In this document: positions 7,029 to 54,948 of the stretch, piece by piece
How the letters are laid out: each line of letters opens with the position of its first letter
Numbering within the stretch: the stretch's first letter is position 1
Assembly (NCBI GenBank): GCA_000002435.2
Contig: CM018793.1
Source of the DNA: Giardia intestinalis
Taxonomy: Eukaryota
Length of the DNA: 64,000 nt
Reading direction: 5' to 3' (one strand)
Notes under the pieces: model-generated
What the model was told of the DNA's origin: nothing
The model's database searches: none
The model's input: the letters and a program-made list of their open reading frames with translations, nothing else
Made by a program: the position numbers and the translations under genes

Positions 7029-7520
7029 ATGGTGACCAATATCGAGTTTGTTCCAGAGGTGAAGCCAGATAGAGAGCTGAAGGTGAAGGATATTCTCCGA
7101 TTTGTTAATCCGCCAGACAGGTTCCATAGCCCGTCACTTTTTTGTCTAAAGTTGCTGGCCGAATACGGCCCTTTACGGGATGGACAAATCTGGGGCGGGG
7201 CAAAGATGCACAGGGCCATAACTGTACATGAAATGAAGCTGATCCTAGAGCACTACAAGGCACAAACAGACAAGATAATATTTCAGCTGAGAAAGGAGGG
7301 GTGTAAGGGCGAGTTCATTCATCCCATGAATCACCAGCTTATACCGATGCTGGAGAAGTACCTTCGGTGCTTAGCGAAGGCCCGACTGGACTATCGGGAC
7401 GGACCGTTCACCGCAGAGACAACGATCGATTTCACTGACCTGTCAAATGCGATAGAGCAGTTCTATCCTCAGCTGGTAAAGATGTGCATGCGCACCAAAG
7501 ATAAGCGAATCTCCCCGTAA
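7029..7520 (+). CDS. hypothetical protein
   Basis: 164-aa ORF. Position 7026 is GTG; the first ATG is at 7029. No recognisable motif. Confidence 0.3.
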   Translation: MVTNIEFVPEVKPDRELKVKDILRFVNPPDRFHSPSLFCLKLLAEYGPLRDGQIWGGAKMHRAITVHEMKLILEHYKAQTDKIIFQLRKEGCKGEFIHPMNHQLIPMLEKYLRCLAKARLDYRDGPFTAETTIDFTDLSNAIEQFYPQLVKMCMRTKDKRISP

Positions 7521-7529
7521 AGTGTACCC

Positions 7530-9716
7530 CTAGAGGAACATGCCTTTAGCATACCTGTTCTGGACAATCTTATCCAATACTTGGACTATATAGGATGTTG
7601 CTTCATTCAGGCTGGTGTCACTTGTGAAAACGGCCACCATGTCGATAAGGTGGGCAGACTTGTAGTGTGCCTCGCACCACTTTGCTACCTCAGGCGCTTG
7701 GCTAGGACTTGGTACATCTAGTACGACGCTATTGGCCAGGGAGGGCGTTCTACGAAACGCTGATCCAAGAAGCGATCGCCTGTTTGAGCCTGCCCTGGAT
7801 TGCCCTGCGCCACCGCTATGCTGCGATGCTTTGACAGAGTTTCTGGAAGCCGACGTCGATCTCTTTGGAGTTGATTCAAACGACGCCCTTCCTGATGCTC
7901 CTGTCGCCAGTAGCTCTGACCTGTCCAGTGACTGTGTAGAGTCGCCGGAGTATCCATTAGTAACAGGATATGTACCGCTGGCGCACATGCTCTGTATGAG
8001 CGTTCTGTGAAGAGGGATCTTTAGTACGCTGAAGCACGAGGCCATCTGGGCACCTGGAATTGTGTGGTCGATAATTTCCCACGGAACACTGTCTGCCCTC
8101 GGAGCTTTTGTCTTTGTCTTACCGGTGCCTGTAACCCCGGGCATCTGATCATAAATGTGTATGTGTGTCATCCAAAACACCATCATTTTATCCTCCCTCT
8201 TCTGTACTGAGAACCGGAGTCCGGCTCCCATACAATTGTGTCTAAAGAAGAACATACTTGTGAAAGCAGCCCTAATGGCTTCCACGCCCGTCCTTAGCTG
8301 ACATATTTGCGTATCTACTAAAGAGCACTCATTTTCGCTACTCATGGAATTGTGGCTTCGTTGGGATTCAGAAGATGGTAAGAAACAGGAGGCCTCCTCC
8401 AGCAAACCATGGACGCTGTGTGTGAGAGTTTCTTTGAATGTGTGGTTGGATGCAATGAATGCTAAGCATTTATTACGCGACACTGCATGTAGATAGTGAG
8501 ATGTCATTGCCTTCAACGGATGGCATGCCTGGATGTATAACGGAGGAAACATGGCTGGAAAGAGCTTGCGTGCCCGTTGGAAGCAAGTTGAGTGTAGCGT
8601 TTCGTGAACCACTGTTGCAAATGCTTCCAAGTTGTTCTGGTACCTTTGCTCCAGCTGCTGAACCAAATTGCTCGTCATTAGCACGCAGTAGAAAAGTGTA
8701 AAAACAGGAATCCGGAGGTTCTCTGCCGTATGATCACTGTAGGAATAGGAGTCTAGCGCTTGCTGGACAACTATGCCTGTTACTTCACTTCCTTGACAAG
8801 TTAGGTTCATAATATGATAGCTTTTGCTGAAGTACTCAGATACCTCCACAGTATTCAGGTCTTGCTCTTCCAGTGATCCCATAAACTTATCGAGAATACA
8901 GCCTGCGTCCTTCTGTGAAGTAGTGGTCCTTGGGAATTCGGGATCATCTCCCCACTTGTCAGTCAGTATGCTGTGTAGCTTAGAATAGAACGTACTATGA
9001 GCAAGCATGGATATATAGTTGGAGTGAGACAAATAGTCGCGGGGAAGAAGGCCTTTGGGGGGTGGTTCGCAGGAAGTAATATCAAGTAAATGCGCATCTA
9101 AAAACGCTACCAACCGCGTAGACAGGATGATGTTTGCTCTGAGGTCCAAACAATCTGCTTTCGCGCCTGAGGTGTACGCTTGATCCATGATATCCCTATG
9201 TGCCTCGGTGAGAACTGTACTGAGAGAATTAAATAGAACGCCGGTCTGCATCAGTGTGCAGCGAATGGTGGGAAGGGCCAGAGGTAAGGGCCAGTACAGG
9301 CCGGGCTCCCACTTGAGCAAACGGCTGGCCCTCTGCATAACAGCGTTTAAAACTGGTATGGATTGGCTTAGCCGCTGCATAGGACTATGTAATCCTTCGT
9401 AGATAAAGTCATACGGGCCCAGGACAGTGCGGATGACGCCAAAAAGTATTCTGCACCTAAAGGAGGCTTCGACGGCCGGGCACGCTCTGGGGGCAACAAA
9501 AAGGACATACAGCTTATACGATTCTAGCCTTCCAACTTCCACTTGCTGAAGGCAACAGCGATACCCTTCGCTTTCCCACGACAACTCTCCAAGATTTTGC
9601 TCCTTGAGGGTCGTAAGAGAAAACGCAATGAGTGGTTGCAGATACATGCTGTAGTCTAGGGACATCGTGAGAGAGGAATACAGTAGTGTGTGGTCTTCGG
9701 TGATAATACTGATCAT
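7530..9716 (-). CDS. hypothetical protein (~728 aa)
   Basis: Long ORF. The track start at 9752 is GTG. The first ATG is at 9716 ('MISIITEDHT'). Ser-rich C-terminal region. No recognisable domain. Confidence 0.45.
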   Translation of the reverse strand: MISIITEDHTLLYSSLTMSLDYSMYLQPLIAFSLTTLKEQNLGELSWESEGYRCCLQQVEVGRLESYKLYVLFVAPRACPAVEASFRCRILFGVIRTVLGPYDFIYEGLHSPMQRLSQSIPVLNAVMQRASRLLKWEPGLYWPLPLALPTIRCTLMQTGVLFNSLSTVLTEAHRDIMDQAYTSGAKADCLDLRANIILSTRLVAFLDAHLLDITSCEPPPKGLLPRDYLSHSNYISMLAHSTFYSKLHSILTDKWGDDPEFPRTTTSQKDAGCILDKFMGSLEEQDLNTVEVSEYFSKSYHIMNLTCQGSEVTGIVVQQALDSYSYSDHTAENLRIPVFTLFYCVLMTSNLVQQLEQRYQNNLEAFATVVHETLHSTCFQRARKLFPAMFPPLYIQACHPLKAMTSHYLHAVSRNKCLAFIASNHTFKETLTHSVHGLLEEASCFLPSSESQRSHNSMSSENECSLVDTQICQLRTGVEAIRAAFTSMFFFRHNCMGAGLRFSVQKREDKMMVFWMTHIHIYDQMPGVTGTGKTKTKAPRADSVPWEIIDHTIPGAQMASCFSVLKIPLHRTLIQSMCASGTYPVTNGYSGDSTQSLDRSELLATGASGRASFESTPKRSTSASRNSVKASQHSGGAGQSRAGSNRRSLLGSAFRRTPSLANSVVLDVPSPSQAPEVAKWCEAHYKSAHLIDMVAVFTSDTSLNEATSYIVQVLDKIVQNRYAKGMFL

Positions 9717-9777: not shown

Positions 9778-10569
9778 ATGGGGCACACTCTTACGCGTCC
9801 AGACTGCGAAATGCTTCACAAGATCATCAACGAATTTGTCAAGTGTCTGGTCTATCGAGCCGGAAAAGCCCAAACCAGACAGACCCTTAGCCTTCGGGAG
9901 CTCCTTTCGTTTTCTCAATTGGACGTCGTGCGCTTTGACTTATCTCATTTGCCGCTACTCTATCTCCTTGATGGCGACAAGGACGGGTTGTTCTCAATCC
10001 ATGACTTGCTCAATCTGGGCTATTATTACGGCAGCATCAACCACATGACCAATTATAAGGCTCACGAGTGTGCTAGCATCATCCAGGCATACTCCACGGG
10101 GATGCTAGCTCTCTACGGGGATGCGCCCTCCTTCATCAAGTGGTTTGTCAAGCTCTTGGAAGTCATAGAGCCAACCGTCACGGTCGAGAGTGTCAGGTGT
10201 GTATCGGCCTCTGTGGTCCGGGTGATGCACACTGTGCTGAAAGTGGAGCTCATTACTCGGGAGTCATCGGAGAAGCTCCTGGACACCATGCAGCGCGCAG
10301 CCGTGCAGATGGGGCTCATCGATCAGCAGCAGCTCAAAGCATTCGATGGACTAGCACCCCTAGTGATTGTTCAGGCATTTGGAGACGAGCTGTTCAAAGC
10401 GTTCACGGCCACATACAACGACTTGGGGCTAGAGTCTGTTGAAATATTGAAGTACTACCGTCCCTTCGACGAGACCAGCTTCCCCGAGATAAACTCGCTC
10501 TTCAAGGACAAGTTGACAGAAACGCTGAACGCCATATCCGTTCACTCTGAGGACAGCAGCGATAGCTGA
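9778..10569 (+). CDS. hypothetical protein with one EF-hand-like loop
   Basis: ATG verified and preceded by 'ttttaaaatta'. 'DGDKDGLFSIHDL' fits the EF-hand loop pattern DxDxDGxIxxxE except for D at position 12. Confidence 0.4.
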   Translation: MGHTLTRPDCEMLHKIINEFVKCLVYRAGKAQTRQTLSLRELLSFSQLDVVRFDLSHLPLLYLLDGDKDGLFSIHDLLNLGYYYGSINHMTNYKAHECASIIQAYSTGMLALYGDAPSFIKWFVKLLEVIEPTVTVESVRCVSASVVRVMHTVLKVELITRESSEKLLDTMQRAAVQMGLIDQQQLKAFDGLAPLVIVQAFGDELFKAFTATYNDLGLESVEILKYYRPFDETSFPEINSLFKDKLTETLNAISVHSEDSSDS

Positions 10570-10650
10570 CGCCAAGACGCTTTCCCCTAGGGAAGATATG
10601 ATCGTAGGAGAACCTAAACGACTATGCTATGTGTATTCTATGTGGCGCTT

Positions 10651-11610
10651 CTAGGGCATCAGAGGGTCAGCAGGCCCGTCTGCCTTAACATCGCTTCCAG
10701 TGGGGCTCGAATCCATGTCTTCGAGCTCTTGAAAATCGGGTTTTCCCTCTATCTCGCTGTGCAGCTTCCGGTATCTGCTGTTGTAGTACCTTATTTGGAC
10801 CAAGATGGTAAAGTCCATCATCATGGGGAAGATTGCAGCGATTATGTACGGCGTAGTTCGCAGCAGATACTCTCGCTCCTGACTGAACGTGAATAGGGAT
10901 GTCGTCTGCGCAGCGTTGGCGGTGAATATTATTGCAAAGAAGCTTGGGCTGAGATCGTCAGTGGCCTTGGTCCTGCAGTTCTTTATTACCTGCAGAAGCC
11001 CGCTAAAGCAGTAAAGAGGAAGGGTGATGTACGCCAGGACAGACCCGACTATATACCGCGCAGAAGTGTGCGAGAGCTCTGGGGAAACAACACACTCGCT
11101 GAACATCTGCGGGACCCGCTGAATGTATGTCGTTACTGGAATCGAGTAACACAGAAAACTCGATAGGCAACCAGCGAAGAACACGGTGTAGATCACTGCC
11201 TCCGACCTGCGCATCCTCCCCATAGACTTCACGTCTATCTCTGGGAGCTGCTTGCCCTTGTGTTTCCGCTTGTAGTACAAGGTGACAGCGGTCATGGTGC
11301 TATCGAGAAACAGCCAGAGACCGCCCATTATGATCTGTGTTAACGGCTGCCGCAAGATGATGAGAGAGCTGAAGTTGCTGATGTCTCCAGACACCCAGAG
11401 GAAGAGAAGGACGCTTGAGATGCATTCGGCCCGCTTTAACAGCAAAGAGAGCCGTATCTGCGGATACGATGCCGTGAACCAGCACGCGATGGATATCCAG
11501 CCAAAAATGACCGAAACGAGTTCATGAACGCTATACACGCAGTCATCGAACACTGCCGCAGCAAAGGGGTTGGCCGGGGTGCCATCGGGCAGCGGGGCGC
11601 AGTAGCACAT
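10651..11610 (-). CDS. PQ-loop repeat multi-pass membrane protein (cystinosin/Ypq-like fold)
   Basis: Seven predicted hydrophobic helices. 'ACWFTASYPQIRLSLLLKRAECISSVLLFLWVSGDISNF' matches the PQ-loop motif. A second degenerate copy ('LLQVIKNCRTKATDDLS') sits in the C-terminal half. The track start at 11655 is TTG. The first ATG is at 11610. Confidence 0.4.
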   Translation of the reverse strand: MCYCAPLPDGTPANPFAAAVFDDCVYSVHELVSVIFGWISIACWFTASYPQIRLSLLLKRAECISSVLLFLWVSGDISNFSSLIILRQPLTQIIMGGLWLFLDSTMTAVTLYYKRKHKGKQLPEIDVKSMGRMRRSEAVIYTVFFAGCLSSFLCYSIPVTTYIQRVPQMFSECVVSPELSHTSARYIVGSVLAYITLPLYCFSGLLQVIKNCRTKATDDLSPSFFAIIFTANAAQTTSLFTFSQEREYLLRTTPYIIAAIFPMMMDFTILVQIRYYNSRYRKLHSEIEGKPDFQELEDMDSSPTGSDVKADGPADPLMP

Positions 11611-14623: not shown

Positions 14624-15997
14624 CTAAGAGTAGGTGGAGAGCACCAGGCAATATGCATGCCTGTCCGAATTCGTGGTGTAGTTGAATGTGCCTTCCTGGA
14701 ATCGGCCGTTGGCACAGCGCTTTTTGGCCTCAGCCAACACGTGAAAGACAACTCCGTTGAACTTTTCCATGGTTGCATTAAACGAGAACTTGTCGTCAAA
14801 AGTAAACAGGACGCTCGTTTTGCCGGAGTCCACGGCAGCAACCACGGCAGCGATCATCGCCTCCTGCTCCCTATCATTGAAGGAGGACAACTTGATAGAC
14901 CTGCAAACAAAGATAGAGTCGTCATATTTAAACTTGAACCCAAGGGCAGGAAAGGCGTCACGCCCGTCGGTGAAGCTGATGCTGTTAATAGCAATCTTGT
15001 GGTCTGTGTTCTGCCTGATGTAGTAGAGGATGTTGTAGCAGTTCTCCTTGATCATACTAATCGTTGCCTCGCACCTGATTCTCTTGTCAAACAGAAACTC
15101 ACACTGGCTATATCCAGCGTCAAGGTAAGTGATGCATGCAAGAGCCACGGATTCGATGAGCGCGTGGTCCGATAGACCTGCGCTGATGAAGGAGCCAGAC
15201 ATCACGTTGTAGTTGTACTTCATGGAGTTCGCCTTGGGGTATCCAAATTCGCTGCTCGGCTGATGGTTGATACTGATGTACTCGTCAGAGAGGTTCATGT
15301 ATAGATGGGAGATGAAGTGATTCTTCTCTCCGCGCTCCGGCGTCAGCGGGTCGTCCCAGGTAACATCTACGTGGTACCAGTCATCTTCCAAGCGCACCAT
15401 ATTCCAGGCATGAGGACCATTGTGGCCAAGACCGGTGATCTTGAGGGCTCTGATTCCGCAGTTGATGCACAGGTAGAGGAAGACCTCGGTATAGCACTCA
15501 CAGACGCCCAGCTGGCGGCTGAAGAATCCGTAGATGGTGTGGTCACGGTGCAGGTTGCTGCGGCCGCTCGAGTTAGCCGAGTACTCACAATAGGCGACGA
15601 TGAAATCATGAATGCAGCGCTCGACCTCATACTGGCTCATGGACGGCCTTAGCTCTGCTTTGAACTTGGCGAGTGCCTGATCAATGGTTGCATGCTTGAG
15701 CCTCACCTCTGCTTGATCGAATTCCTGGAAAGAGACACGCGTCACGATTCCATTGGTCAGGGAGTAGTTAGTCGGGCGAGTCCACCAGATCTCTGGATAG
15801 TCGAGCTCAAAGGCCTTGTTAATAACCTTCATATCCCGGTCGTAAATCTTGAGGTCGGCCGGGATAACGACGCTGGGAAGGAAGCTCTCCGCAGCAGACG
15901 CAAGGATGTCTATGACTTCTCTATAGCGGGACTCGACAACGGACCTGTGATAGCGGAACTCACAAGGAACCCCGAACTGGATCGTTTGGCCGGACAT
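14624..15997 (-). CDS. transglutaminase-like (papain-fold Cys-His-Asp) domain protein
   Basis: ATG verified. 'GVCECYTEVFLYLCINCGIRA...GPHAWNMVRLEDDWYHVDVTWDDP' shows the Cys...His...Asp arrangement and spacing of the transglutaminase-like superfamily core. Confidence 0.5.
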   Translation of the reverse strand: MSGQTIQFGVPCEFRYHRSVVESRYREVIDILASAAESFLPSVVIPADLKIYDRDMKVINKAFELDYPEIWWTRPTNYSLTNGIVTRVSFQEFDQAEVRLKHATIDQALAKFKAELRPSMSQYEVERCIHDFIVAYCEYSANSSGRSNLHRDHTIYGFFSRQLGVCECYTEVFLYLCINCGIRALKITGLGHNGPHAWNMVRLEDDWYHVDVTWDDPLTPERGEKNHFISHLYMNLSDEYISINHQPSSEFGYPKANSMKYNYNVMSGSFISAGLSDHALIESVALACITYLDAGYSQCEFLFDKRIRCEATISMIKENCYNILYYIRQNTDHKIAINSISFTDGRDAFPALGFKFKYDDSIFVCRSIKLSSFNDREQEAMIAAVVAAVDSGKTSVLFTFDDKFSFNATMEKFNGVVFHVLAEAKKRCANGRFQEGTFNYTTNSDRHAYCLVLSTYS

Positions 15998-16048
15998 TAA
16001 AATCCCATGTCACACCTTTAATTCAATGGACATAAATCTTAAATCGTG

Positions 16049-16468
16049 ATGAAAGAGAAATGCAACGCCTCAAATTCTGTGCAAACATCGCGGGGCAAGC
16101 CATGGTTCATTTACGAGCCCCCCACGACGGCCACTTCCTCTTCCCAAGTCTGGGTTGTCCCACCCCTCTTCGATGGTGAAGCCAAGCCTGTAAGAAAGGC
16201 TGTTGTGGAGGCTGCTGTTCCTCCATATTGGGGCACAGATATCTCTCGGACTGCGTTCCTAGGGTCATCCGACCGCCCTTTTCGGCATCACGGAGGCACT
16301 TCTGAGCCTAGCATTGTTCTATCAGCGAATTCTGCCATCTTGACCGCTATTGATTACAGTCGCAAGAGCCTTTCTCCCGTCGCATCTCAAGGGAAAAGCC
16401 TTTATACTAAACCGTATACCCACCCAGACCTGCAGTCGTATAGCCGCACCCCTGACACGCGTTCCTGA
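16049..16468 (+). CDS. small hypothetical ORF (139 aa) in a long divergent spacer
   Basis: ATG at 16049 preceded by 'cataaatcttaaatcgtg'. Protein-like composition but no motif. May be non-coding. Confidence 0.2.
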   Translation: MKEKCNASNSVQTSRGKPWFIYEPPTTATSSSQVWVVPPLFDGEAKPVRKAVVEAAVPPYWGTDISRTAFLGSSDRPFRHHGGTSEPSIVLSANSAILTAIDYSRKSLSPVASQGKSLYTKPYTHPDLQSYSRTPDTRS

Positions 16469-16587
16469 CAAGGTAGGCTCTTCTGCTCAAGGGGTCCTTG
16501 CACAGAGTCAGCGGGGGCATTGTATCAAGATGATATTGTGCCTTGATTTATGTAAATTTTACAAAAAAGCGAATTTCATAAGAGCAG

Positions 16588-19500
16588 ATGACACACAACC
16601 AAGGCGCTGCTGGCAGCGAGCTGGACTTTAAAGTGCTTTTTGCGACTTCTGAAGAGCCAGGTTATAAGGCAGAACGGCTTCTAGAGCACAATGTACTAGG
16701 GTCAGGTTGGCGCTCTCTGCGGAGGTGCTCCTATCCTCAGAGCATTGCAATCTCACTCGGTCAGGTTTATAAGATTCAGGCTGTTCAATTTACAACGCAC
16801 GAGTTCTTGGTTCCTTCGTTTGTGGAGCTTCTCCTATATAACCCTCAACAGCAGGCGTGGGAGACCATTGGCAAGGTGCAGATGGGGAAGGATGGGCGGC
16901 CGACAGCCGGGCGTGAACGAAAGACAGTCAAGATAGACATAAAAACAAATGCTCTACGATTCATTCTCCATCAACCCTTACCTCATCAGAATAATAATTA
17001 CAATCAAGTGAGCATCGCTGCCATTACCGTGCTTGGAAACCCAGCTCCCACAGATATCCGTCCCACAACACCGCAAATCGGTCATCCCATTGTCTCTCGT
17101 AGCAAGCGAGGAACGACTAAGCCCTTGTCAGGACCTTCACAGGACAATTCAAGACAATCGAGTAATGGATCTTCTTACGCTGGTGCAGCCAAGGCACAGG
17201 CCCAGATGGCTCCCACTCCGGGCGTCTTGCCGCAAATACTCAATCCACCGGATAGTGGCGACTCTCAGGCCAGCAGAGGGCATTCATATTTAGAGAAGGG
17301 AGAAGAGCTCCGGACGGAGATAATGATTAACAAAACTAAGGCTGCAGCTGCAGAAGACTTTCTACTGGCAGACAGATATAAGATAGCCTATGACGCGCTA
17401 GGCTCCCTACTTGTGGACTACGCATCTCTGGATGAGCGGAAGGCTGCTGCTATTGCTGCTGAAAATTACAAAGGTGCACACGAGATCAAGACAACGATGA
17501 AAGAAGTGGAAAACATCCTTCAGCTACCGTTAGAAAAGCTTGTGAGGATGCTCAACGGAGAGCCAGAGCCGCCGTCCCCCAAGGTAGCACCACCAACCTC
17601 TCTAAATAAAGGATCGAAACCTAAGCATCAAGTAAGTTATCAAACTCTAGAGCCAATGGGAGAGAACGCCGACGAAAACGAAGACGATCTCACGACCAAT
17701 GATATCGGAGGAGCTCCCCCAGATGCAGCTTCCAAGCAGGCTCGCGCTAACAGCAGGCCACGCTCAAGGATGAAGGCGTCTGGAGTGAGCGACACTGAGG
17801 ATCTCTCTAGAGCAGTGCCTACCATATCAAATAAGGATATTATTAACGAAAATGGCGAGCGAATGCTCCATAATAACAATAATGGTTATCAGCAATTCTT
17901 CCTTACCGAGGAAGAGAAGCGAGAGCTTGAACAGGAGAGGAAGGAGAACTACATGCGCCGACGAGGAACGAACCTTGCTGCGAGCATGATGACAAAGACG
18001 CGGACGTTGACAGGCAACTCTACTGGGGCTGGAGGGAGCGAGGAGCTCGGTGCATCCACTCGTATGCGTCAAGGGGTTACCAAGTCCCAAGTTACCAAGT
18101 CGCAGTTGGCCAAAACTGGAACAATGCAACAGTTTTCTTTCGATGATGAACTTAATAATATAACCAGTAACAGAGACAAAGAGACTGCACCACCTGAATT
18201 ACCAGGGAGTGTCATGAGGGGGAACAACGCAACTAAGCTGAAGGATGCTGGGTTCAATGAGATGTACATTAGACTTGCTTACTCTTCAAATAAGGGAAAC
18301 GTCATAGATGCCATAAATTTAATGATACGCGCTCTCGTTCACGATCCTGTCGCATTCTATCCTGCAGGCATTTCTCTAATAACAATCATTTCCGAGTCTA
18401 CCAATACAGCACTGATAGGCTTGATAGGCAACCTCTTCTGCCATGTCTATCTGGCCATAATGAGAAAATACAGAGGAGCACCCAATGGTGGAGAGCTTGT
18501 GGGTACCGTTACACAGACGAAGAACACTGTGGTAGACGCTGGGGATATGACCTTGACATTTCTAGATGTCACGGCACAGCTCACTCTGCAGAAGGAGAAT
18601 GCTGTGACATATGCTGAGTTGAAGTGCACATCTGAACGGACTGTGGAAAAAGCTATCGGCCAAAACATGTCCAACTTACACAATGATGTGCTTCTACTGC
18701 TGGCACCTATCATCCACAAGCTCTCAGACAGTCAGCGGAGGACAAAAATCAATTCCATTAACATGTTGGCCACTGCCTCAACGTTCCCCTTCTTTCCCAC
18801 ATTCAACTTTGTGAACGCCATTATCTCCAGGCGATCCATAGAAAAGGCCTCTGGACTGGCTCAGAATGAGCTGTCCTTTCAAAACCAAAAGCTCATATAT
18901 CTAGTAGAGACCCGCAGCTGGGCGACTGCAATATTAATAACAGGAAATCAGAGGCTTATGACAAAAGATACCATTCCTGTACTGCGAGCATATATAGAGT
19001 GGATTATTCCTCACGCTACTAAGCAAGAACAGAAAAAGCCTGCGACAGACATCCTTATCGCCATGTATGGTAGCTTATTGTCTGACATGATTGGAATCAC
19101 AAACGCCGTCGAATGTGCGAACAAGGCATGCACGACAGAAGCCATTCTCAAAACCATCTACAAGGCAATGGTAGAGTGTGATAAAAAGCTAAGCATCAAG
19201 CCGCCACGGGTAAAGCTTCTCCCTCCCTCAGCTGACGCACCTGCAGGCAAGCTGGTAATAAACATGAAGCCGTCGCTATCAAGTCGTCCATCATCTCCCG
19301 ATTATAAGCGAGACACTGCAGCTGGTCACGAGGGATACAGTGCACATAGTATGGATGGTATAGATAACGCCCGTGCTCAACAATATCAGCACCAAAGCGG
19401 AGGCAATCAGCAAGAGCTTACTGCAGTCGCAGAAACTGTTGCTGACGACGATGACCCCCAGTACGGAGATTTTCCCCCTGGGGTGTGTCAGTTTTGTTTA

Positions 19501-19920
19501 GAGGAATGCGGACAACAGGAGGACATGGCCCTCAATATGTACCGGCACCTGCTCATCAAGTGCCCGTGCTGTTGTGCTTGTCCAGCGTGTGAAGCCATAA
19601 TAGAGATACCATGTCTGCCTGAGCACATGATTTACGAGTGCACGCACAAGGGCAAGCTGCAGTACTCGTTAGACTTATGTAAGAATTGCAGATGTATCAT
19701 AGAATCGAAGTACATGGCAAGTCACATGGTGACATGCAAAACTATACTGGGAGAGGAGGAAACGATATGTCCACTTTGCGGAGAGCTCCTTCCCAATAGC
19801 GAAGCTGCGCTCACCCATTATAGCGACGGAGAGGGATGCCCTGGCAATCCTCGAACTGCTGCTAATTTACGTACCGTGGTCTCGAACAAGGTGAACTCCA
19901 TTAGGCGCGGCCCGCAGTAA
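16588..19920 (+). CDS. CEP104: CEP104-like centriolar/ciliary tip protein
   Basis: The N-terminal jelly-roll region matches CEP104: 'GWRSLRRCSYPQSIAISL' vs human 'GWRSPRFCQFPQEIVLQM', and 'LRFILHQPLPHQNNNYNQVSIAAITVLGNP' vs 'LKLIFHQNHVNKYNIYNQVALVAINIIGDP'. The C-terminus carries a Cys/His zinc-finger array as in CEP104. ATG verified. AGTAAAC overlaps the TAA stop. Confidence 0.7.
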   Translation: MTHNQGAAGSELDFKVLFATSEEPGYKAERLLEHNVLGSGWRSLRRCSYPQSIAISLGQVYKIQAVQFTTHEFLVPSFVELLLYNPQQQAWETIGKVQMGKDGRPTAGRERKTVKIDIKTNALRFILHQPLPHQNNNYNQVSIAAITVLGNPAPTDIRPTTPQIGHPIVSRSKRGTTKPLSGPSQDNSRQSSNGSSYAGAAKAQAQMAPTPGVLPQILNPPDSGDSQASRGHSYLEKGEELRTEIMINKTKAAAAEDFLLADRYKIAYDALGSLLVDYASLDERKAAAIAAENYKGAHEIKTTMKEVENILQLPLEKLVRMLNGEPEPPSPKVAPPTSLNKGSKPKHQVSYQTLEPMGENADENEDDLTTNDIGGAPPDAASKQARANSRPRSRMKASGVSDTEDLSRAVPTISNKDIINENGERMLHNNNNGYQQFFLTEEEKRELEQERKENYMRRRGTNLAASMMTKTRTLTGNSTGAGGSEELGASTRMRQGVTKSQVTKSQLAKTGTMQQFSFDDELNNITSNRDKETAPPELPGSVMRGNNATKLKDAGFNEMYIRLAYSSNKGNVIDAINLMIRALVHDPVAFYPAGISLITIISESTNTALIGLIGNLFCHVYLAIMRKYRGAPNGGELVGTVTQTKNTVVDAGDMTLTFLDVTAQLTLQKENAVTYAELKCTSERTVEKAIGQNMSNLHNDVLLLLAPIIHKLSDSQRRTKINSINMLATASTFPFFPTFNFVNAIISRRSIEKASGLAQNELSFQNQKLIYLVETRSWATAILITGNQRLMTKDTIPVLRAYIEWIIPHATKQEQKKPATDILIAMYGSLLSDMIGITNAVECANKACTTEAILKTIYKAMVECDKKLSIKPPRVKLLPPSADAPAGKLVINMKPSLSSRPSSPDYKRDTAAGHEGYSAHSMDGIDNARAQQYQHQSGGNQQELTAVAETVADDDDPQYGDFPPGVCQFCLEECGQQEDMALNMYRHLLIKCPCCCACPACEAIIEIPCLPEHMIYECTHKGKLQYSLDLCKNCRCIIESKYMASHMVTCKTILGEEETICPLCGELLPNSEAALTHYSDGEGCPGNPRTAANLRTVVSNKVNSIRRGPQ

Positions 19921-21514
19921 ACAGATATGCTACTTCTAGCGTGTTGTCCGTCCGCACCATAACATTCATAGAGAGCTGCTTCTGGGTGTGAGATGAATAT
20001 TTTATTTTTAAAATCTCACCATCGTAAATCTGAGAGGCAGATTGTAAAGTATTTTGGACGTGTTCTGTTTCATCATTCGTTCCTGGCGTGGAACTATCAT
20101 CCGTCCACCCTGAAGGCGTATCATCTTCATAAAGTAGCACACCGTCCCCGTAAATCGCAGAGATGGTAGAGGAAAATTCTTTAGTAAGATACTCGATAAC
20201 AGCATCAACGGAAAGGGGAGGTACATCCTTCACTTTCAGAATGTAGTAAGGGACACTGCATACGACACAGGCTGGATTTGAGGGTCGCAGATCATCGTTT
20301 ATCAGCAATGTCCTTCTAGAGTTCTTAATGAAGTGCTGAAGAGAAATAGCTGTGCGGTGCTGCTTGGTTATGAGGGAAGAGAAGATCATGTGGGCGAGCT
20401 TCATTGCTAGAGCAGCTACTGCAGCATTGGTGAATGTTACAGCGGGGACGATTGATCCTGCCAGAGTACTGAGCTCAAACGGAGTAAGCGTCGTAGTGAT
20501 TCCGAACGAGTGCATCCGCAACACTGAAAGGCCTGCAACGAGAGCGACCAGGTGAGGATTGTCTCTGTCATACGTGGTAAGGGTATACGCCTTACATGCA
20601 ATGGATCTTGCAAGCGCTGTAGCGCTGATGAACACTTCCTTTAAAGCCTGCTCAACGGACATATGCTCATGTAAAGTATAGCTAACCGAGAGAGATGTCT
20701 GCTTTATGCAGGGCTGAATCGCTCCGTCTTCGTGCTCTGATGCAGCCAACAAATGAGTAACAGCTTGCCTTGCCTTATTTATGTCCTCCATGTCCAGCAC
20801 TGCAGAGGCGGATGGATTGTCTAAAAGGTGAGTTTTGAAGCTATAGTAGAGGAAGCGAGCTAACTCAGATAAGAGCTTGTCAATCGAGCCACTACAGTCA
20901 ATAGGTGTGTACTCAGTGAGTTCGGAAAACGGGTCAACGTCGTACATACGCTGCACAAGAAGAATGGAATAACTGACACAGTGCTCGGGCCGCGTCGGCT
21001 TATTCTTCATGGTACATATAGGAATGTCTATACGTGTGTCCCTATTATAACAGTTATAGCACTCTACTGTCGGGTCCTCGGACAGCCAGTACAAAGCAGG
21101 AGGGTAGCCAGTCACGGAACCAGACAGGCCAGATGTCCCAGCATCTACCAAAAGTTTATTGGCGAACCAGCACATCTCACCCACATATTGCCTGGGAGCG
21201 AAGGCGTCAAGACACGTTACGGTGACATCATATTGAGAGAAAAAGGACGGACCAAAGCGCTTTGGGTTGATAACCGTCTCACTATAAGAGTTAACCCTTA
21301 GTGATGGCGCCTTTGCCCTGAGATAGTCCGCAGTGACATGTGCCTTCTCGCGACCCACGTCGTCCCTACTGTAGAGAAACTGACGATTGATATTCGAAAG
21401 CTCAATGCTGTCCATGTCTATGACTGCTACAGAGGCATAGCGAGCGGGGGCCTGGACAACCAGCTTCGCAACCTCGCACCCAATCCCGCCGCACCCGACG
21501 ATGCACAGATTCAT
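19901..21514 (-). CDS. UBA2: SUMO-activating enzyme subunit 2 (UBA2/SAE2, ThiF/E1 family)
   Basis: 'IVGCGGIGCEV...IDMDSIELSNINRQFLY...DVGREKA' is the E1 adenylation motif. 'ECYNCYNRD...ICTMKNKPTRPEHCVSYS' matches the SAE2 zinc/catalytic-Cys region 'ECYECHPKP...GCTIRNTPSEPIHCIVWA'. 'PACVVCS' matches 'PNCYVCA'. ATG verified. Confidence 0.7.
   Translation of the reverse strand: MNLCIVGCGGIGCEVAKLVVQAPARYASVAVIDMDSIELSNINRQFLYSRDDVGREKAHVTADYLRAKAPSLRVNSYSETVINPKRFGPSFFSQYDVTVTCLDAFAPRQYVGEMCWFANKLLVDAGTSGLSGSVTGYPPALYWLSEDPTVECYNCYNRDTRIDIPICTMKNKPTRPEHCVSYSILLVQRMYDVDPFSELTEYTPIDCSGSIDKLLSELARFLYYSFKTHLLDNPSASAVLDMEDINKARQAVTHLLAASEHEDGAIQPCIKQTSLSVSYTLHEHMSVEQALKEVFISATALARSIACKAYTLTTYDRDNPHLVALVAGLSVLRMHSFGITTTLTPFELSTLAGSIVPAVTFTNAAVAALAMKLAHMIFSSLITKQHRTAISLQHFIKNSRRTLLINDDLRPSNPACVVCSVPYYILKVKDVPPLSVDAVIEYLTKEFSSTISAIYGDGVLLYEDDTPSGWTDDSSTPGTNDETEHVQNTLQSASQIYDGEILKIKYSSHTQKQLSMNVMVRTDNTLEVAYLFTAGRA
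19916..19922 (+). promoter_or_regulatory. poly(A) signal AGTAAAC (AGTRAAY) overlapping the TAA stop of the CEP104-like gene
   Basis: Exact AGTRAAY match with the stop codon embedded. It lies inside the last codons of the convergent UBA2 gene. Confidence 0.5.
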
Positions 21515-21539
21515 TTATCACATTTACACTCATACTTAA

Positions 21540-21941
21540 TCAGAGACTGTTGAGCTTCGAAAGGTGCTCTTCGCATTCGTTGGATGCAGGGTGTCCAGAC
21601 CAGACCAGCTCCCCATCCTTGTTGAAGAGGAAGGCAGCAGGGATGCCCTTGCAATTGTTCTTCTCCATAAGGCTGCGGACCTCCTTGTTCGTGTCACAGG
21701 CCACGTTGTACTCCTTCATGTGGGAGATGCGAGAAGCAAACCCCTCGACGGTCGCAACATCCTCCTCGGAGACGCTCACAAGGTATACGTTGGGGTACTT
21801 GGTCGGGATCTTTGCAAGGTGCGGGATCATGCCTCGGCAAGGCGGGCACCAGGTTGCAAAGGCCTCGACCATGTAAGACATTCCGGGCCTGTACTCCTGG
21901 ACCTTATTTACGTAGGTCAACGCATTGATATCAGGCAGCAT
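21540..21941 (-). CDS. thioredoxin
   Basis: 133 aa with the 'WCPPCRGM' (WCxPC) active site and thioredoxin-fold spacing. ATG verified and preceded by 'ttcttaaaa'. Confidence 0.7.
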   Translation of the reverse strand: MLPDINALTYVNKVQEYRPGMSYMVEAFATWCPPCRGMIPHLAKIPTKYPNVYLVSVSEEDVATVEGFASRISHMKEYNVACDTNKEVRSLMEKNNCKGIPAAFLFNKDGELVWSGHPASNECEEHLSKLNSL

Positions 21942-22062: not shown

Positions 22063-23061
22063 CTAAGAATACCAAGACCCTGTTTGTGGAACCTCTGTCG
22101 TGTCAGCTGCACAGATGAGGCCCACAGTAGACGAGTTTAAAGGTTGTGGTGCCATAGAGTCTAGTCCAGAAAACAGTCTTGTGGTCCCTGATAGATATGT
22201 GGGAGGTGGGGTGATAGCATGGATCTCACCGTCAACGCCACTGGTACGTGGCCGTTGTGCTTGCAGACGAGAGTGACTAGCAGATTGACAACTGAGGGAG
22301 GCCTTTAATTTGTTCTGAAGGCGATATTTTTGTAATTTAGATTGAACGTGTTTCTGCGTGAGATCAGGGTAAAAAGGGCTCATAAAGCGGAGGATCCTAA
22401 CGGGTGTAGGGACCTCCCCGATGATGCTGTTGTATGCTCGCACAAAGAGGTCATTCATTTCTGGAGTCCAAACAATGCGGCTGGATGCCTTGCATGTCCT
22501 TTCGTTGCGCTTAGAGGAAACCTCAAGGCCTCTAAGAGGTACGTTGTTTAGCTTGGAATGACTCTTTTCAGAGACGCCGTTGATGGCCTTGCTTTTGCTG
22601 ATAGGTACGGGCGAGAGTATAGATGCAGATGCAATCGTGGTGTTGGGCTCTAGGTCGGAGGCGTAAGTATAGGTCGGAGAAGATGACGTCATAACACCTC
22701 CCTTGCCATAATACTGAGGATGTCTAGTATTCTCCTCAACTGCTCCCTCCGCATGAGCAGATTGATGGTCTTCCTCCGAGGCTCTCAACTCAGCTCTAAA
22801 CGGCATCAACTCCAAATATCTAAAGGAGACAGAAGGATTTATCCCTTTACTAGCTGGTTGTGAAGAGCGCTTGAGCGACTTGCAGACTGAGAGGAAGTTC
22901 TTCTGGAATACACTCCGTGAAATGAAAAAGCAGTCTTTCGGCAGCAGCTTTCTCAGCTCCTCAGAATAAAGACTAGTTGGCATGGGTGTGGTGTGCTCCA
23001 TTAACCCCGTGCTTTGGTCATCAATGGTTGCGTCAGACTCATCGATCAATCTTCTCTCCAT
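22063..23061 (-). CDS. GARP/SHAQKYF-class Myb-like DNA-binding protein (GLP1-like)
   Basis: 'RIVWTPEMNDLFVRAYNSIIGEVPTPVRILRFMSPFYPDLTQKHVQSKLQKYRLQ' matches the GARP consensus 'R.VWT.ELH..FV.AV..LG...AtPK.IL..M.V.GLT...V.SHLQKYRL'. Three in-frame ATGs (23142, 23097, 23061). I chose 23061 because it follows an AT-rich tract and avoids overlap with the upstream gene. The longest ORF runs to 23142. Confidence 0.5.
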   Translation of the reverse strand: MERRLIDESDATIDDQSTGLMEHTTPMPTSLYSEELRKLLPKDCFFISRSVFQKNFLSVCKSLKRSSQPASKGINPSVSFRYLELMPFRAELRASEEDHQSAHAEGAVEENTRHPQYYGKGGVMTSSSPTYTYASDLEPNTTIASASILSPVPISKSKAINGVSEKSHSKLNNVPLRGLEVSSKRNERTCKASSRIVWTPEMNDLFVRAYNSIIGEVPTPVRILRFMSPFYPDLTQKHVQSKLQKYRLQNKLKASLSCQSASHSRLQAQRPRTSGVDGEIHAITPPPTYLSGTTRLFSGLDSMAPQPLNSSTVGLICAADTTEVPQTGSWYS

Positions 23062-23093
23062 TTTTTTGAATTTACAACCCAATTTCAAAAAAA

Positions 23094-24683
23094 TCATTGG
23101 GGAAACACGGTCTTGAAAGATGATGCAGCTGCCTCGCTGCATTTAGGACAACATATGTCTATAGCCTTTAAGTCCTTCCAGCACTCATTGCAAAAGACAA
23201 GGCTGTTACATTTCGTGCACAAAATAGTCTTTTTTTTGCTCTGACAATGCAGACAATTGAACTTTTTTTTGAGATCAAAGTTCCCAGCATCAGCGAGCAG
23301 CATGTTGCGCAAGTTATCGTTAGTGCGTTTGCTAGACTTTAACATGGTACTAAGAGTCTCATATTTCTGAAGTACTGCTCCGTGGGACCCCGTGTGTGCT
23401 TTAAGCTGTTGAATACGCTGCTCAAGACCACCTGCAGCACGAACATCTTGTGTCTTTTCAATGGCTTTCAGTCTAGTATACGTCTCCATCACACCCCTCA
23501 TAACCCCATTAAGCTTTGCAAAGCATTCATGAATATTGTTACATTCTGCATTCTCAAGGAGACCATTATTTTGCAATAACTCCAGCAGCTTTTTACCCTC
23601 GGCCAGTGCGTCATCAAAGATCGCAAGTTTTGCGCTAATCTGCTCATACCCTTCATTAGCCTCGTCCTTCAGTGCCCTTATTTCCTTAGCTATCTCACTG
23701 TTCTTCTGTGACAGTTGATCTCTTTTGTCAATCAATCTTGCATTCTGCAGCTTCACCGATGCCAGTTTGTTGGCCCTTGCTATTAGTAAATTCTGCAGGT
23801 GGACATTTTCTTCTTGCAGCTTGTGTACTTTGCCCATGGCCATCTGATCTACCGAGTTACTGAGGGCAGCTAGAGAGCCGTACTCCAGGTTGTCAATCTC
23901 TCTAGCTCCGCTTGCTCTCACCATAAAGTCAAGCATTTGACCAGCTCTCCATCTTTCTTTATCATCTGCAAATAGAGACCTTTCAAAGATCTGCCTGAGG
24001 TCATCTGACTGAATACCTTGGAGGCTGGCCCTGTCGACTCCATGAGTTAGATCCCTAAACGTAGCCATTTGGTAGAGAATACAACATACCTGATTAACAA
24101 TATGTGCATCGATATCCTGGTTGTTGTACTCCCGTGGCGTGCTGTTTGCTATTTCGGGAATCAGCATCCACAAACCCGCAAGCGAAAACGATGTCAGCGC
24201 GCTGTCGCAGGTTATGGTGTCAAGTGATATGTCGGTGATATTGCAGATTGGCACGTCCGGCCCTGTGCCACGCTGCTTCTTGCGTGGGTGGTATACATAC
24301 ATTAATGCCGAAAGGATCTGTGCCCCACAGGTCAAGACGTTCCTGGGAGAAAAGGGCTTACCCTCAGCTGCATGCGCCTGAACGAGTGTGGATAGCTGCG
24401 TGCGTAAAGGGCCGTGCTCCACATAAATAGAATTGCTGGCAGTGGAGATAATACATCTGGACGGGCTCTCAATATATTGGTGGTGCATGTCTACTAGGAG
24501 GCTGAGATCATAGGCTATTTGAGCCGGCGTACGGCCAGTATTGGGGTTATAAACTAATGAAGTCACTTCTTTCTGCCCAGTGTCGTTGGTGTCGTGTAGT
24601 GCATCAACCTCTGACAGAGGGAAACTGTCGAAGGGAGCATTTGGGTTGAGACTCTCTACAAGCTTAACTCGCGGAAAAAGCAT
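23094..24683 (-). CDS. degenerate kinase-like N-domain + coiled coil + C-terminal Cys-rich zinc finger protein
   Basis: ATG verified. The N-terminal ~250 aa carry remnants of kinase C-lobe motifs ('LAGLWMLIPE' ~ APE region) without a Gly loop or HRD. Central heptad repeats. C-terminus 'CLHCQSKKKTILCTKCNSLVFCNECWKDLKAIDICCPKC' is RING/B-box-like. Confidence 0.35.
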   Translation of the reverse strand: MLFPRVKLVESLNPNAPFDSFPLSEVDALHDTNDTGQKEVTSLVYNPNTGRTPAQIAYDLSLLVDMHHQYIESPSRCIISTASNSIYVEHGPLRTQLSTLVQAHAAEGKPFSPRNVLTCGAQILSALMYVYHPRKKQRGTGPDVPICNITDISLDTITCDSALTSFSLAGLWMLIPEIANSTPREYNNQDIDAHIVNQVCCILYQMATFRDLTHGVDRASLQGIQSDDLRQIFERSLFADDKERWRAGQMLDFMVRASGAREIDNLEYGSLAALSNSVDQMAMGKVHKLQEENVHLQNLLIARANKLASVKLQNARLIDKRDQLSQKNSEIAKEIRALKDEANEGYEQISAKLAIFDDALAEGKKLLELLQNNGLLENAECNNIHECFAKLNGVMRGVMETYTRLKAIEKTQDVRAAGGLEQRIQQLKAHTGSHGAVLQKYETLSTMLKSSKRTNDNLRNMLLADAGNFDLKKKFNCLHCQSKKKTILCTKCNSLVFCNECWKDLKAIDICCPKCSEAAASSFKTVFPQ

Positions 24684-53486: not shown

Positions 53487-53493
53487 TCACGCT

Positions 53494-54948
53494 CTAGTCT
53501 GCCCCGAATAGATCGCGCACGTGGTCCTCAGGTCTTCTTCTTTCATGGACGGAACTCTGTGCAGTTCTTCCGTTATCCTTCCCTTGAATAACCCGTTTTC
53601 TGGTACCTATTGGGGTCTTTTCTAAAGCTACTTCTGGAGCAGACTGGGGAGCTGGGGTATTGAGAGATGTGTTGGCGAACTTTGCCTTGTCGTAAAGAGC
53701 CTTATCTATGTAAAACCCATGCATGTAAGGTATACAGAGAGAGGAGTCTGCCACTAAGTCCAACCCAACCCTCTCCAGATCCTCCTTGGTCACAAAGTAG
53801 AGCCCTTCGTATGAGCTTGTAAGCGCGTTTGTGGACATGTCTGCAGCAAGGTCGTCCAAGAATGCAGCAAAGACAGGAGATGGTCCGAGCTCAGGGACAT
53901 AGAAGGTATTAACGACCATGTCCTCACACGGAACCATCAGCAGGCCAGACTCAGGAAAGACGGTAAAGGAGTTAATGGTCACATCTGGTTCAATAACGCA
54001 GAACAGCTTGCTTTTGCTAGTAGTTGAAGCTGTGCTCTCGTCTGGCCTGAACATGCGTATGGAGCGACTATCGGCAGAGATAAGTGTATGCGTGGAGTAA
54101 CTTGTGTGGAAGCATATCTCTCTAATTGGAAGGTCGGAGTGATGTGTAAATTGATGAAGAGGATGGGATGAGCGTATGTCATAGAGAATAACATCAGACT
54201 CACTGGTACCGGCAGCAATCTGCAGACCGGTTTTGTCAACAGCAACCGCGGTACCTTCGTTTTCCAGCGCTATGCTAGAAACAATGCCTCCCTTTGTCCT
54301 GGCGTCATAGGTGCTCAGTGAGTGGCCATCAGCTGCAAAGGTAAGGCAAGTCTCGGGAGAGTAGACAAGTGCATTGACTCCAAATGCATCAGAAGAGATG
54401 AGCTTCCGCGAAAAAGATGGTGTGTCCCAGGATGTGCGAAAGCGGCCTTCTTGCAGGTCCACTCTGTAGATTTGTCCCCCAACTCCACCAACAATCAATT
54501 GGGGCGTGTGGCAGTCAAATGCAGAACACCTAGGGGGCCTAGGAATACGCATCTTGTACAGTTTCCCACCCTTGTTGTGAAATTCTAAGTTTCGATCTAT
54601 TTCGACAAGGGCCATGAGCTGATAATCATCGGAAAGAAAGTGGAAATCGACAATCTCCGAGTCTGTGTTCCGCTGAACCTTGAGGCCCGTGTTTCCCAAA
54701 TCGTAAAGCCGCAGCATAGGAGGATAGCATCCGCATGCAGCGAAATACTGACAATCATTGGAAAACCGAGCCTTGGTTGTTAGAGTGGGGAACGTGAGGT
54801 CTTGCAAAACATCAATCCGCTGCTTGTTCGTAGGTGCTTCTTGCATGTTCTTTCGTTCCTGCTTTGAGAGGAAGGCTGGGATGCCCTTTCCGGGCGTCAC
54901 GTTGAAGACTTTCACGTTATTGACAGTTGTTGTGACGAGGAGCGACAT
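53494..54948 (-). CDS. NOL10: nucleolar protein 10 (NOL10/Enp2) homolog
   Basis: 'FLSDDYQLMALVEIDRNLEFHNKGGKLYKMRIPRPPRCSAFDCHTPQLIVGGVGGQIYRVDLQEGRF' aligns with human NOL10 'ILSDDYSKIVFLHNDRYIEFHSQSGFYYKTRIPKFGRDFSYHYPSCDLYFVGASSEVYRLNLEQGRY'. Also 'LISADSRSIRMF'/'ILSADSRIVKMW' and 'YFVTKEDLERVGLD'/'KFVTKKDLENLGLT'. The track start at 54951 is TTG. The ATG is at 54948. Confidence 0.8.
   Translation of the reverse strand: MSLLVTTTVNNVKVFNVTPGKGIPAFLSKQERKNMQEAPTNKQRIDVLQDLTFPTLTTKARFSNDCQYFAACGCYPPMLRLYDLGNTGLKVQRNTDSEIVDFHFLSDDYQLMALVEIDRNLEFHNKGGKLYKMRIPRPPRCSAFDCHTPQLIVGGVGGQIYRVDLQEGRFRTSWDTPSFSRKLISSDAFGVNALVYSPETCLTFAADGHSLSTYDARTKGGIVSSIALENEGTAVAVDKTGLQIAAGTSESDVILYDIRSSHPLHQFTHHSDLPIREICFHTSYSTHTLISADSRSIRMFRPDESTASTTSKSKLFCVIEPDVTINSFTVFPESGLLMVPCEDMVVNTFYVPELGPSPVFAAFLDDLAADMSTNALTSSYEGLYFVTKEDLERVGLDLVADSSLCIPYMHGFYIDKALYDKAKFANTSLNTPAPQSAPEVALEKTPIGTRKRVIQGKDNGRTAQSSVHERRRPEDHVRDLFGAD

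Follow-up and report, generated by a model that had tools for sequence, protein, structure and literature searches.

Two conserved housekeeping genes lie tail to tail at positions 16588 to 21514 of the Giardia intestinalis WB sequence analyzed here, a stretch of 64,000 nucleotides from contig CM018793.1 (assembly GCA_000002435.2) that we refer to as the 64-kb window. On the plus strand, the open reading frame (ORF) at 16588-19920 encodes a CEP104 ortholog of 1110 amino acids, which is an exact match to the public protein XP_001707535.1, and it ends in a TAA stop codon at 19918-19920. On the minus strand, the ORF at 19901-21514 encodes UBA2/SAE2, the catalytic subunit of the SUMO E1 enzyme (537 amino acids; XP_001707533.1), and it ends in a TAA stop codon at 19903-19901. 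The two coding sequences share 20 bp (19901-19920, both strands), which for each gene is six sense codons plus the stop codon, minus one base. Both genes are publicly annotated with exactly these ends.

Identity of the two genes

The initial annotation named the plus-strand gene CEP104 on the strength of an N-terminal jelly-roll domain and a C-terminal zinc-finger array, and both ends of the protein bear this out. Residues 40 to 150 match the complete Pfam profile CEP104_N (PF21038, jelly-roll; profile positions 1 to 120) with an E value of 1.8e-22 and a score of 80.2 bits (cut-off, 27.5), and residues 966 to 1073 match CEP104_ZnF (PF21039) at 1.3e-10, above the gathering score. The sole significant PDB match is the zinc-finger structure of human CEP104 (5lpi), which is found at E = 0.0011 when the query is the single sequence and at 1.6e-4 when it is a Giardia profile, and in which the Cys/His pattern is aligned. 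An exhaustive full-library HMMER search gives 573 matches at E ≤ 0.001; the best 150 of these are mostly proteins of 800 to 1100 amino acids, with two to four matched stretches at the N and C termini, and the Giardia protein is collinear over its full length with CEP104 orthologs of other eukaryotes. A word-indexed homolog search with the same protein returned Giardia proteins only. The name deposited with XP_001707535.1 is [quoted passage not shown] Since the entries from the DH and GS-B isolates in its protein cluster are tagged DHA2_16818 and GSB_16818, the WB gene is probably GL50803_16818.

The central region of the protein has no PDB match to a TOG domain with either the sequence (phmmer) or a profile, and a local phmmer search followed by iterated hmmsearch among 149 relatives converges on diplomonad relatives only. 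With hhalign, Giardia residues 548 to 890 are placed on residues 401 to 660 of a canonical CEP104, whose TOG domain spans 399 to 640 in structure 5lph, but the match is weak (E = 0.014, probability 3%). AlphaFold gives low-confidence models, with a pLDDT of 39.5 for residues 537 to 881 from a single sequence and 28.2 for the full-length protein from a four-sequence alignment.

The UBA2 assignment also stands. The minus-strand protein has a ThiF domain (Pfam, 3.6e-37) with the nucleotide-binding motif GxGxxGCE (GCGGIGCE, residues 7 to 14), and its best PDB match is human SAE2, at 1.4e-45 versus 1.8e-24 for UBA3. The corresponding phmmer scores are 159 bits for SAE2 (in two stretches, including residues 314 to 444), 115 bits for UBA1, and 90 bits for UBA3. 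The catalytic Cys167, in the sequence P-I-C167-T, aligns with PGCT of human SAE2 (motif PxCT), and the zinc-binding pairs C152/C155 and C416/C419 align with ECYEC and CYVC. The numbering of Cys152, Cys155, Cys167, Cys416, and Cys419 is identical to that published for Giardia gSAE2 (GL50803_6288), for which an HA-tagged protein has been localized and alongside which no canonical SAE1 was reported (Vranych 2012). Based on the alignments and on these coinciding cysteines, we conclude that the minus-strand gene is the published gSAE2. In UniRef, the 537-amino-acid protein is named as the NEDD8 E1 (UBA3), a name that is ruled out by the PDB scores and by the gSAE2 residue numbering; the literature places Giardia UBA3 at another gene, GL50803_4083.

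The 20-bp overlap and its conservation

The overlap of the CEP104 and UBA2 coding sequences is confirmed: the convergent ORFs do end at 19920 and 19901, as first annotated. The sequence AGTAAAC at 19916-19922 consists of the last two bases of the final CEP104 CAG codon, the TAA stop, and AC, and its opposite strand reads (CT)G-TTT-ACT in UBA2 codons, so that the earlier description of a motif built from the partner's codons is also correct. Because every mRNA has to include its own stop codon, the two mRNAs cannot avoid being sense and antisense to each other over 20 nt or more, as had been proposed. A sequencing error, which had been named as something that could undo the overlap, is excluded, since both stop codons recur 20 bp apart in seven independent assemblies or lineages. 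The seven sequences compared are WB, P15, GS, GS-B, and three further assemblies, and three NCBI genomes are among them. One short contig that was considered as a possible poly(A)-ended transcript assembly is only a fragmentary genomic contig.

Assemblages A, B, and E and two additional lineages all have an overlap of 20 bp, and UBA2 protein identity across these Giardia duodenalis lineages falls as low as 71%. The UBA2 stop codon alternates between TAA and TGA while its position is fixed, and the changes responsible are synonymous in CEP104 (ATT-AGG to ATC-AGA). The five lineages all agree at 14 of the 20 overlap positions, versus 65% invariance for CEP104 gene-wide. Giardia muris has the same convergent CEP104/UBA2 pair with a 22-bp spacer and no overlap, and in a more distant relative the two genes are not adjacent. 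Exact conservation of a 20-bp length could also stem from selection for the overlap itself.

Predicted 3' ends within the partner's codons

Giardia poly(A) signals are AGUAAA and AGUGAA, with cleavage usually 13 to 15 nt away, and in ~15% of Giardia genes the signal is combined with the stop codon in a dual-use NAG-UAA arrangement, giving a median 3' untranslated region (UTR) of 11 nt (PMC9014877). The same dual use has been reported in most G. muris genes (PMC7641422) and also in Spironucleus salmonicida. The CEP104 stop fits this class, as CAG-TAA-A at 19915-19921. Between 14807 and 20228, neither strand has any AGTRAA other than the AGTAAA hexamer of this stop (19916-19921, plus strand), which lies opposite Phe-Thr codons of UBA2. 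The sequence around the stop and hexamer, CAGTAAACA, is invariant in all seven sequences. We infer that this hexamer provides CEP104 with both its stop codon and its poly(A) signal. As the stop belongs to an AGUAAA, cleavage would be expected ~13 to 15 nt after the first A, at ~19929 to 19931. The predicted 3' UTR (19921-19931, plus strand), which is derived from the published distance between signal and cleavage site, would be about 10 nt long (9 to 11 nt) and would consist entirely of UBA2 codons. The neighboring UBA2 tail is otherwise variable, with 16 of 45 nucleotides invariant in 19921-19965, and it is ~25 amino acids longer than the tail of G. muris UBA2.

On the minus strand, there is no AGTRAA from 19900 down to 14581. 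UBA2 has no canonical hexamer downstream. Its mRNA has to continue into the CEP104 coding sequence, and it is there, 29 to 55 nt past the UBA2 stop, that we find a block of conserved synonymous sites (19846-19872; CEP104 codons -24 to -16; minus strand ACGTAAATTAGCAGCAGTTCGAGGATT). In this block, eight of nine codons are identical in five lineages, versus 19% gene-wide, which is the maximum for the whole of CEP104, and 26 of 27 nucleotides are invariant, versus 65% gene-wide. The codons kept include rare ones, namely CGA (10% of Arg codons), TTA (9% of Leu codons), and CGT (13% of Arg codons). A run test on the block, which is partly post hoc, gives p values of 0.006 to 0.03 at widths of 8 to 10 columns and 0.14 at a width of 12, and a test of constraint in a zone defined a priori gives p = 0.025. 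The peptide that these codons specify, NPRTAANLR, does not vary among the five G. duodenalis lineages compared and differs by one residue in G. muris (NPRTAPNLR).

The block contains CGTAAA on the minus strand at 19871-19866. The density of GTRAA is 6.4 per kb in 3' flanks versus 1.15 per kb in the sense strand of coding sequences, and NGTRAAT variants (TGTAAAT and TGTGAAT) follow other stop codons in the 64-kb window. On the antisense strand of coding sequences the density is 2.5 per kb, which corresponds to a ~14% chance of one GTRAA within 60 nt. This conserved CGUAAA lies 30 nt beyond the UBA2 stop and is probably the signal that UBA2 uses, which would put cleavage at ~19856 to 19858 and give a UTR of ~44 nt (43 to 45 nt). 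With the 3' ends predicted for both genes, the mature CEP104 and UBA2 mRNAs would be complementary over roughly 75 nt. A structured RNA is rejected as the cause of the conserved block, because no Rfam family matched 19500-20300 at E ≤ 1 and the predicted fold of minus-strand 19830-19935 is no more stable than shuffled sequences (z = +1.2).

Interpretation and comparison with known systems

Earlier genome-wide work on Giardia has described each of three elements: overlap between coding sequences, overlap between 3' transcript ends, and use of the stop codon as part of the poly(A) signal. In G. intestinalis WB, 892 of 1097 tail-to-tail gene pairs (81%) overlap at the transcript level (Franzen et al. 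2013, PMC3610916), and in G. muris there are 441 overlapping genes (9.5%), with a mean overlap of 21 bp (Xu et al. 2020, PMC7641422). When genes are called crudely across the 64-kb window, the gaps between the 10 convergent pairs are -12, 61, 9, 81, -20, 40, 33, 25, 7, and 433 bp; thus, two of the 10 overlap and eight are closer than 62 bp, and the CEP104/UBA2 overlap does not exceed this local background. Against this background, with 81% of such pairs overlapping (PMC3610916) and ~15% of genes using the stop as a signal (PMC9014877), the initial annotation overestimated how unusual the CEP104/UBA2 overlap is, and these are normal Giardia 3' ends. We conclude, with a probability of roughly 0.85, that the locus is a product of ordinary genome compaction, in which the two reading frames are interlocked by 20 bp, the predicted 3' signals are located in the partner's codons, and the overlap is tolerated rather than functional.

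Two other accounts of the overlap have to be weighed against compaction. The overlap might have been selected as a regulatory device, in which a duplex of ~20 to 75 nt or a collision between polymerases either couples the SUMO E1 and ciliary-tip genes in their expression or makes each limit the other, with the Giardia Dicer/Argonaute pathway as one possible route. The unvarying 20-bp length across the five G. duodenalis lineages sampled despite the divergence of UBA2, the invariance of the combined stop and signal, and the 27-nt block, which at 26 of 27 nucleotides is likewise counted as invariant, are all in keeping with such a device. However, an indel within the interlocked frames would damage both proteins, and therefore a fixed length is expected without any selection for the overlap. 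In addition, transcript-level overlap in 81% of tail-to-tail pairs means that the feature is not specific to CEP104/UBA2, G. muris keeps the genes adjacent without overlapping them, the overlap is conserved no better than the rest of CEP104, and a search of the literature turned up nothing on small RNAs arising at convergent 3' ends in Giardia. We consider a selected device improbable, and its fullest form, a conserved cis-antisense unit in which each 3' signal lies in the partner's codons and the ~75-nt duplex or a collision tunes the SUMO E1 and the ciliary-tip regulator reciprocally, less probable still. Least credible of all is that the overlap is an artefact, with a sequencing error or miscalled stop lengthening one ORF. 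We found nothing in favor of this, and the last residues of UBA2 may be functionally dispensable, as the tail is poorly conserved and longer than that of G. muris, but the identical placement of both stops in seven independent assemblies and the in-place switch of the UBA2 stop through CEP104-synonymous changes contradict an artefact.

The conserved block calls for a separate judgment. That it is a UBA2 3'-end signal written into CEP104 codons may be the case, and the evidence for this is suggestive only. The block could instead reflect a constraint internal to CEP104 (on its mRNA, its translation, or its protein) or chance, with UBA2 cleaved elsewhere, possibly without a recognizable hexamer, and we give this a substantial, though minority, share of the probability. 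It is consistent with the 46.8% of mapped Giardia poly(A) sites that have no prominent motif (Franzen et al., PMC3610916), with the difference between CGUAAA and both canonical signals (PMC9014877), with the modest statistics of constraint, and with the invariance of the peptide itself. Conservation of the protein, however, leaves the identical synonymous sites and the retained rare codons unexplained; the gene-wide maximum coincides exactly with the expected position of the partner's signal and cleavage site; and the lack of an Rfam match or a stable fold also counts against an internal constraint.

With ordinary compaction as the preferred reading, CEP104/UBA2 is a clean, well-conserved textbook case, and it has little importance beyond that. 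The partner's 3' signals appear to be measurable as a footprint at synonymous sites and in the otherwise unconstrained Phe-Thr of the UBA2 tail. If such footprints are general, comparison of assemblages could map non-canonical Giardia poly(A) signals, and they are a caution for dN/dS analyses at the gene ends of compact genomes. If the regulatory account were true, a deep-branching eukaryote would here have a conserved cis-antisense regulatory unit.

Both proteins resemble their human counterparts in part. Giardia CEP104 shares the N-terminal domain and the C-terminal zinc-finger array of vertebrate CEP104 (human zinc-finger structure 5lpi), while its central region is without a significant sequence match to the TOG domain of the vertebrate protein (5lph and 5jo8). 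Giardia UBA2 shares with human SAE2/UBA2 (1y8q and 3kyc) its adenylation domain, catalytic cysteine, and zinc-binding cysteines, although it is 537 amino acids long compared with a chain length of 640 and has a fast-evolving C-terminal tail.

The arrangement of the 3' ends is close to what is already described. Like the tail-to-tail pairs of Franzen et al. 2013 (PMC3610916), CEP104 and UBA2 are convergent genes whose mRNAs are bound to overlap, but here the overlap takes in coding sequence in addition to UTRs, which places the pair in a smaller subset (2 of 10 convergent pairs in the window). The 20-bp overlap is very close to the mean size reported for G. muris (PMC7641422), yet for this pair it occurs in the G. 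duodenalis complex, whereas the more compact G. muris genome has the 22-bp spacer. The CEP104 stop, CAG-UAA-A, is exactly of the dual-use class of Giardia lamblia (Bilodeau et al. 2022, PMC9014877), and the depletion of AGUAAA within ORFs that was reported with that class is likewise seen on the CEP104 sense strand, which has no further hexamer. There is no difference in kind from other members of the class; what distinguishes CEP104 is that the 11-nt UTR predicted by the class would be made of its partner's codons.

The convergent CEP104 and UBA2 genes

The sequence derives from Giardia intestinalis WB (assemblage A), and both predicted proteins are identical to public entries: the plus-strand CEP104 ORF (16588-19920, 1110 aa) to XP_001707535.1 and the minus-strand UBA2 ORF (19901-21514, 537 aa) to XP_001707533.1. 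The initial annotation had the two genes ending at 19920 and 19901, with a 20-bp coding overlap (19901-19920) on opposite strands, and the ORF list and the sequence (UBA2 stop TAA at 19903-19901) agree with this to the base. The AGTAAAC that it placed inside UBA2 codons is present on the plus strand at 19916-19922, where the sequence reads ...CGC GGC CCG CAG TAA ACA..., and the UBA2 codons for Phe-Thr (TTT ACT) are the complement of AGTAAA. Its overall interpretation of the 3' overlap is supported.

XP_001707535.1 is deposited as [quoted passage not shown] (GlyBP), which we take to be an old synonym of CEP104; its cluster includes entries from isolates DH and GS-B with locus tags DHA2_16818 and GSB_16818. 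The proposed CEP104 assignment is upheld by Pfam matches to CEP104_N (1.8e-22) and CEP104_ZnF (1.3e-10), both far exceeding the curated cut-offs, by a sole significant PDB match to the human CEP104 zinc-finger array (5lpi), and by an exhaustive HMMER search that found 573 relatives, mostly of 800 to 1100 aa and matched at both the N and C termini. The central TOG domain of the Giardia protein was not recovered by sequence comparison: profile searches gave matches confined to diplomonads, and hhalign aligned residues 548-890 with the TOG region of a canonical ortholog (residues 399-640, set by 5lph) only insignificantly (E = 0.014, probability 3%). Directly upstream of CEP104, a 139-aa plus-strand ORF (16049-16468) without a Pfam match may be a real small gene, since a gene of equal length is called in assemblages E and B.

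XP_001707533.1 carries the deposited name "Ubiquitin-activating enzyme E1" and contains a ThiF adenylation domain. By PDB similarity, its best match is human SAE2 (two stretches, 1.4e-45, 159 bits), followed by UBA1 (115 bits) and UBA3 (90 bits). The residues listed for gSAE2, GL50803_6288 (Vranych et al. 2012, PMC4030834), match its Cys152/155/416/419 and Cys167 exactly, and a later inventory assigns GL50803_6288 to UBA2 and a different gene to UBA3 (PMC7029713). UniRef labels the protein a NEDD8-activating enzyme, at odds with the PDB similarity and the two papers, by which it is the SUMO E1 subunit SAE2/UBA2; based on the SAE2 match, the cysteine numbering and the inventory, this label is probably a mis-transfer.

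Upstream of UBA2, the 25-bp spacer (21515-21539) between its start codon and a minus-strand thioredoxin-like gene (21540-21941) holds TGTAAA, so that the thioredoxin-like transcript is predicted to be cleaved at the ATG of UBA2 or barely within it; these bases must double as the UBA2 promoter/initiator. The longest-ATG minus-strand ORFs 22063-23142 and 23094-24683 overlap in tandem by 49 bp, and the downstream gene of this pair probably starts at a later ATG because genes called on the corresponding public contig overlap by only 4 bp.

Conservation of the overlap

One concern was that a sequencing error, or a different UBA2 stop, had created the overlap. However, both stops recur 20 bp apart in another assemblage A assembly, in P15 (assemblage E), in GS and GS-B (assemblage B), in a fragmentary contig, and in L002, L003/L004 and L005, which are assemblies from sequencing runs with UBA2 identities to WB of 86%, 75% and 71%, respectively. 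Since these independent assemblies share both stops, an artefact is excluded and the overlap is real. The UBA2 stop keeps its position but is TAA in some sequences and TGA in others, and the underlying changes are synonymous in CEP104. In G. muris the two genes are still convergent neighbors, 22 bp apart, and in a more distant relative (39% identity) an LSM gene rather than UBA2 follows CEP104. G. muris and G. intestinalis differ by a local rearrangement, with the thioredoxin-like gene upstream of CEP104 in the former (10565-10966 of the comparison contig) and upstream of UBA2 in the latter, but share the tail-to-tail junction.

Predicted signals at the two 3' ends

The Giardia poly(A) signal is AGURAA, most often 13 to 15 nt from the site of cleavage and depleted within ORFs (Bilodeau et al. 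2022, PMC9014877); across the window AGTRAA is not depleted (63 found, 71 expected). From 14807 to 20228 the two strands hold a single AGTRAA, the AGUAAA at 19916; none occurs on either strand in the 5.1 kb from 14807 to 19915, which includes the whole CEP104 sense strand before the stop. From the published distances, CEP104 cleavage would be expected at ~19929-19931, in which case the entire CEP104 3' UTR would be made of UBA2 codons. Evolution is fast in the C-terminal tail of UBA2, where 19921-19965 has 16 invariant nucleotides out of 45 (versus 55% gene-wide). The exception is the Phe-Thr pair, which is probably held constant by the stop and signal of CEP104 rather than by UBA2 function. 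The C-terminal ~60 aa of UBA2 (19904-20090), the fastest-evolving part examined, cannot be aligned with G. muris and are ~25 aa longer.

On the UBA2 strand, no AGTRAA occurs over 5.3 kb downstream, and UBA2 must therefore rely on something other than this motif inside CEP104. We compared CEP104 codon by codon in five lineages. Codons are identical in all five at 19% of 859 amino-acid-invariant degenerate columns, whereas in a block at 19846-19872 (codons -24 to -16) 8 of 9 are identical, the highest value in the whole gene; 26 of its 27 nucleotides are invariant, versus 65% across the gene, and the rare codons CGA, TTA and CGT are kept. A permutation test gives p = 0.006 for a run of 9 columns, ~0.03 for 8 or 10 and 0.14 for 12, the width having been picked after the data were seen; in a zone set beforehand, the 60 nt that directly follow the stop of UBA2, 8/20 versus 158/839 columns are identical (Fisher p = 0.025). 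The minus-strand sequence of the block is ACGTAAATTAGCAGCAGTTCGAGGATT, in which CGTAAA begins 30 nt past the UBA2 stop and predicts cleavage at ~19857, inside the block. Similar NGTRAAT variants come after other stops in the window, and 3' flanks show a 5.6-fold enrichment of GTRAA.

These sequence features are suggestive of a signal for the UBA2 3' end that lies within CEP104 codons. Neither a known structured RNA nor a stable fold explains the block, since it gave no Rfam match and no stable RNA fold. The embedded signal is only suggested, since a single GTRAA has a ~14% chance of arising in 60 nt of coding sequence read antisense and the run width was post hoc. That the block is unrelated to UBA2 is a serious rival, but to the embedded-signal reading only.

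Antisense overlap and genome compaction

If both cleavage predictions hold, the mature mRNAs would be complementary over ~75 nt. That the overlap couples the two genes through antisense regulation is an unlikely alternative: nothing marks this pair out as special, G. muris manages without the overlap, and the overlap (14 of 20 positions invariant) is no better conserved than the remainder of CEP104; its constant length is expected once two reading frames interlock.

In WB, mapped poly(A) sites show that 892 of 1,097 tail-to-tail pairs (81%) overlap at the transcript level (Franzen et al. 2013, PMC3610916), and in G. muris overlaps with a neighbor involve 9.5% of genes and average 21 bp (Xu et al. 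2020, PMC7641422). By a crude gene call, the gaps of the 10 convergent pairs in the window are -12, 61, 9, 81, -20, 40, 33, 25, 7 and 433 bp, so that in most pairs the spacing is shorter than one median UTR. The second coding overlap (12 bp, 1827-1838), just 18 kb from that of CEP104 and UBA2, joins a plus-strand Y-family DNA polymerase-like gene (33-1838; Pfam IMS 5.7e-44, IMS_C) and a minus-strand 328-aa ORF (1827-2813) with only a weak DUF713 match. Gaps of merely 9 bp (7520-7530) and 7 bp (53486-53494, between a plus-strand HYDIN/CFAP65-like flagellar gene of 4034 aa at 41382-53486 and a minus-strand NOL10 ortholog at 53494-54948) mean that transcripts of both pairs must reach the partner's coding sequence.

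The sole new element here is the footprint that the putative 3'-end signal of the partner leaves at synonymous sites. The CEP104/UBA2 overlap itself is not unusual; it is an ordinary, already annotated case of the well-described compaction of the Giardia genome, and the CEP104 stop, CAG-TAA-A, belongs to the class in which NAG-UAA is a combined stop and poly(A) signal, found in ~15% of genes, for which the median 3' UTR length is 11 nt (Bilodeau et al. 2022, PMC9014877).
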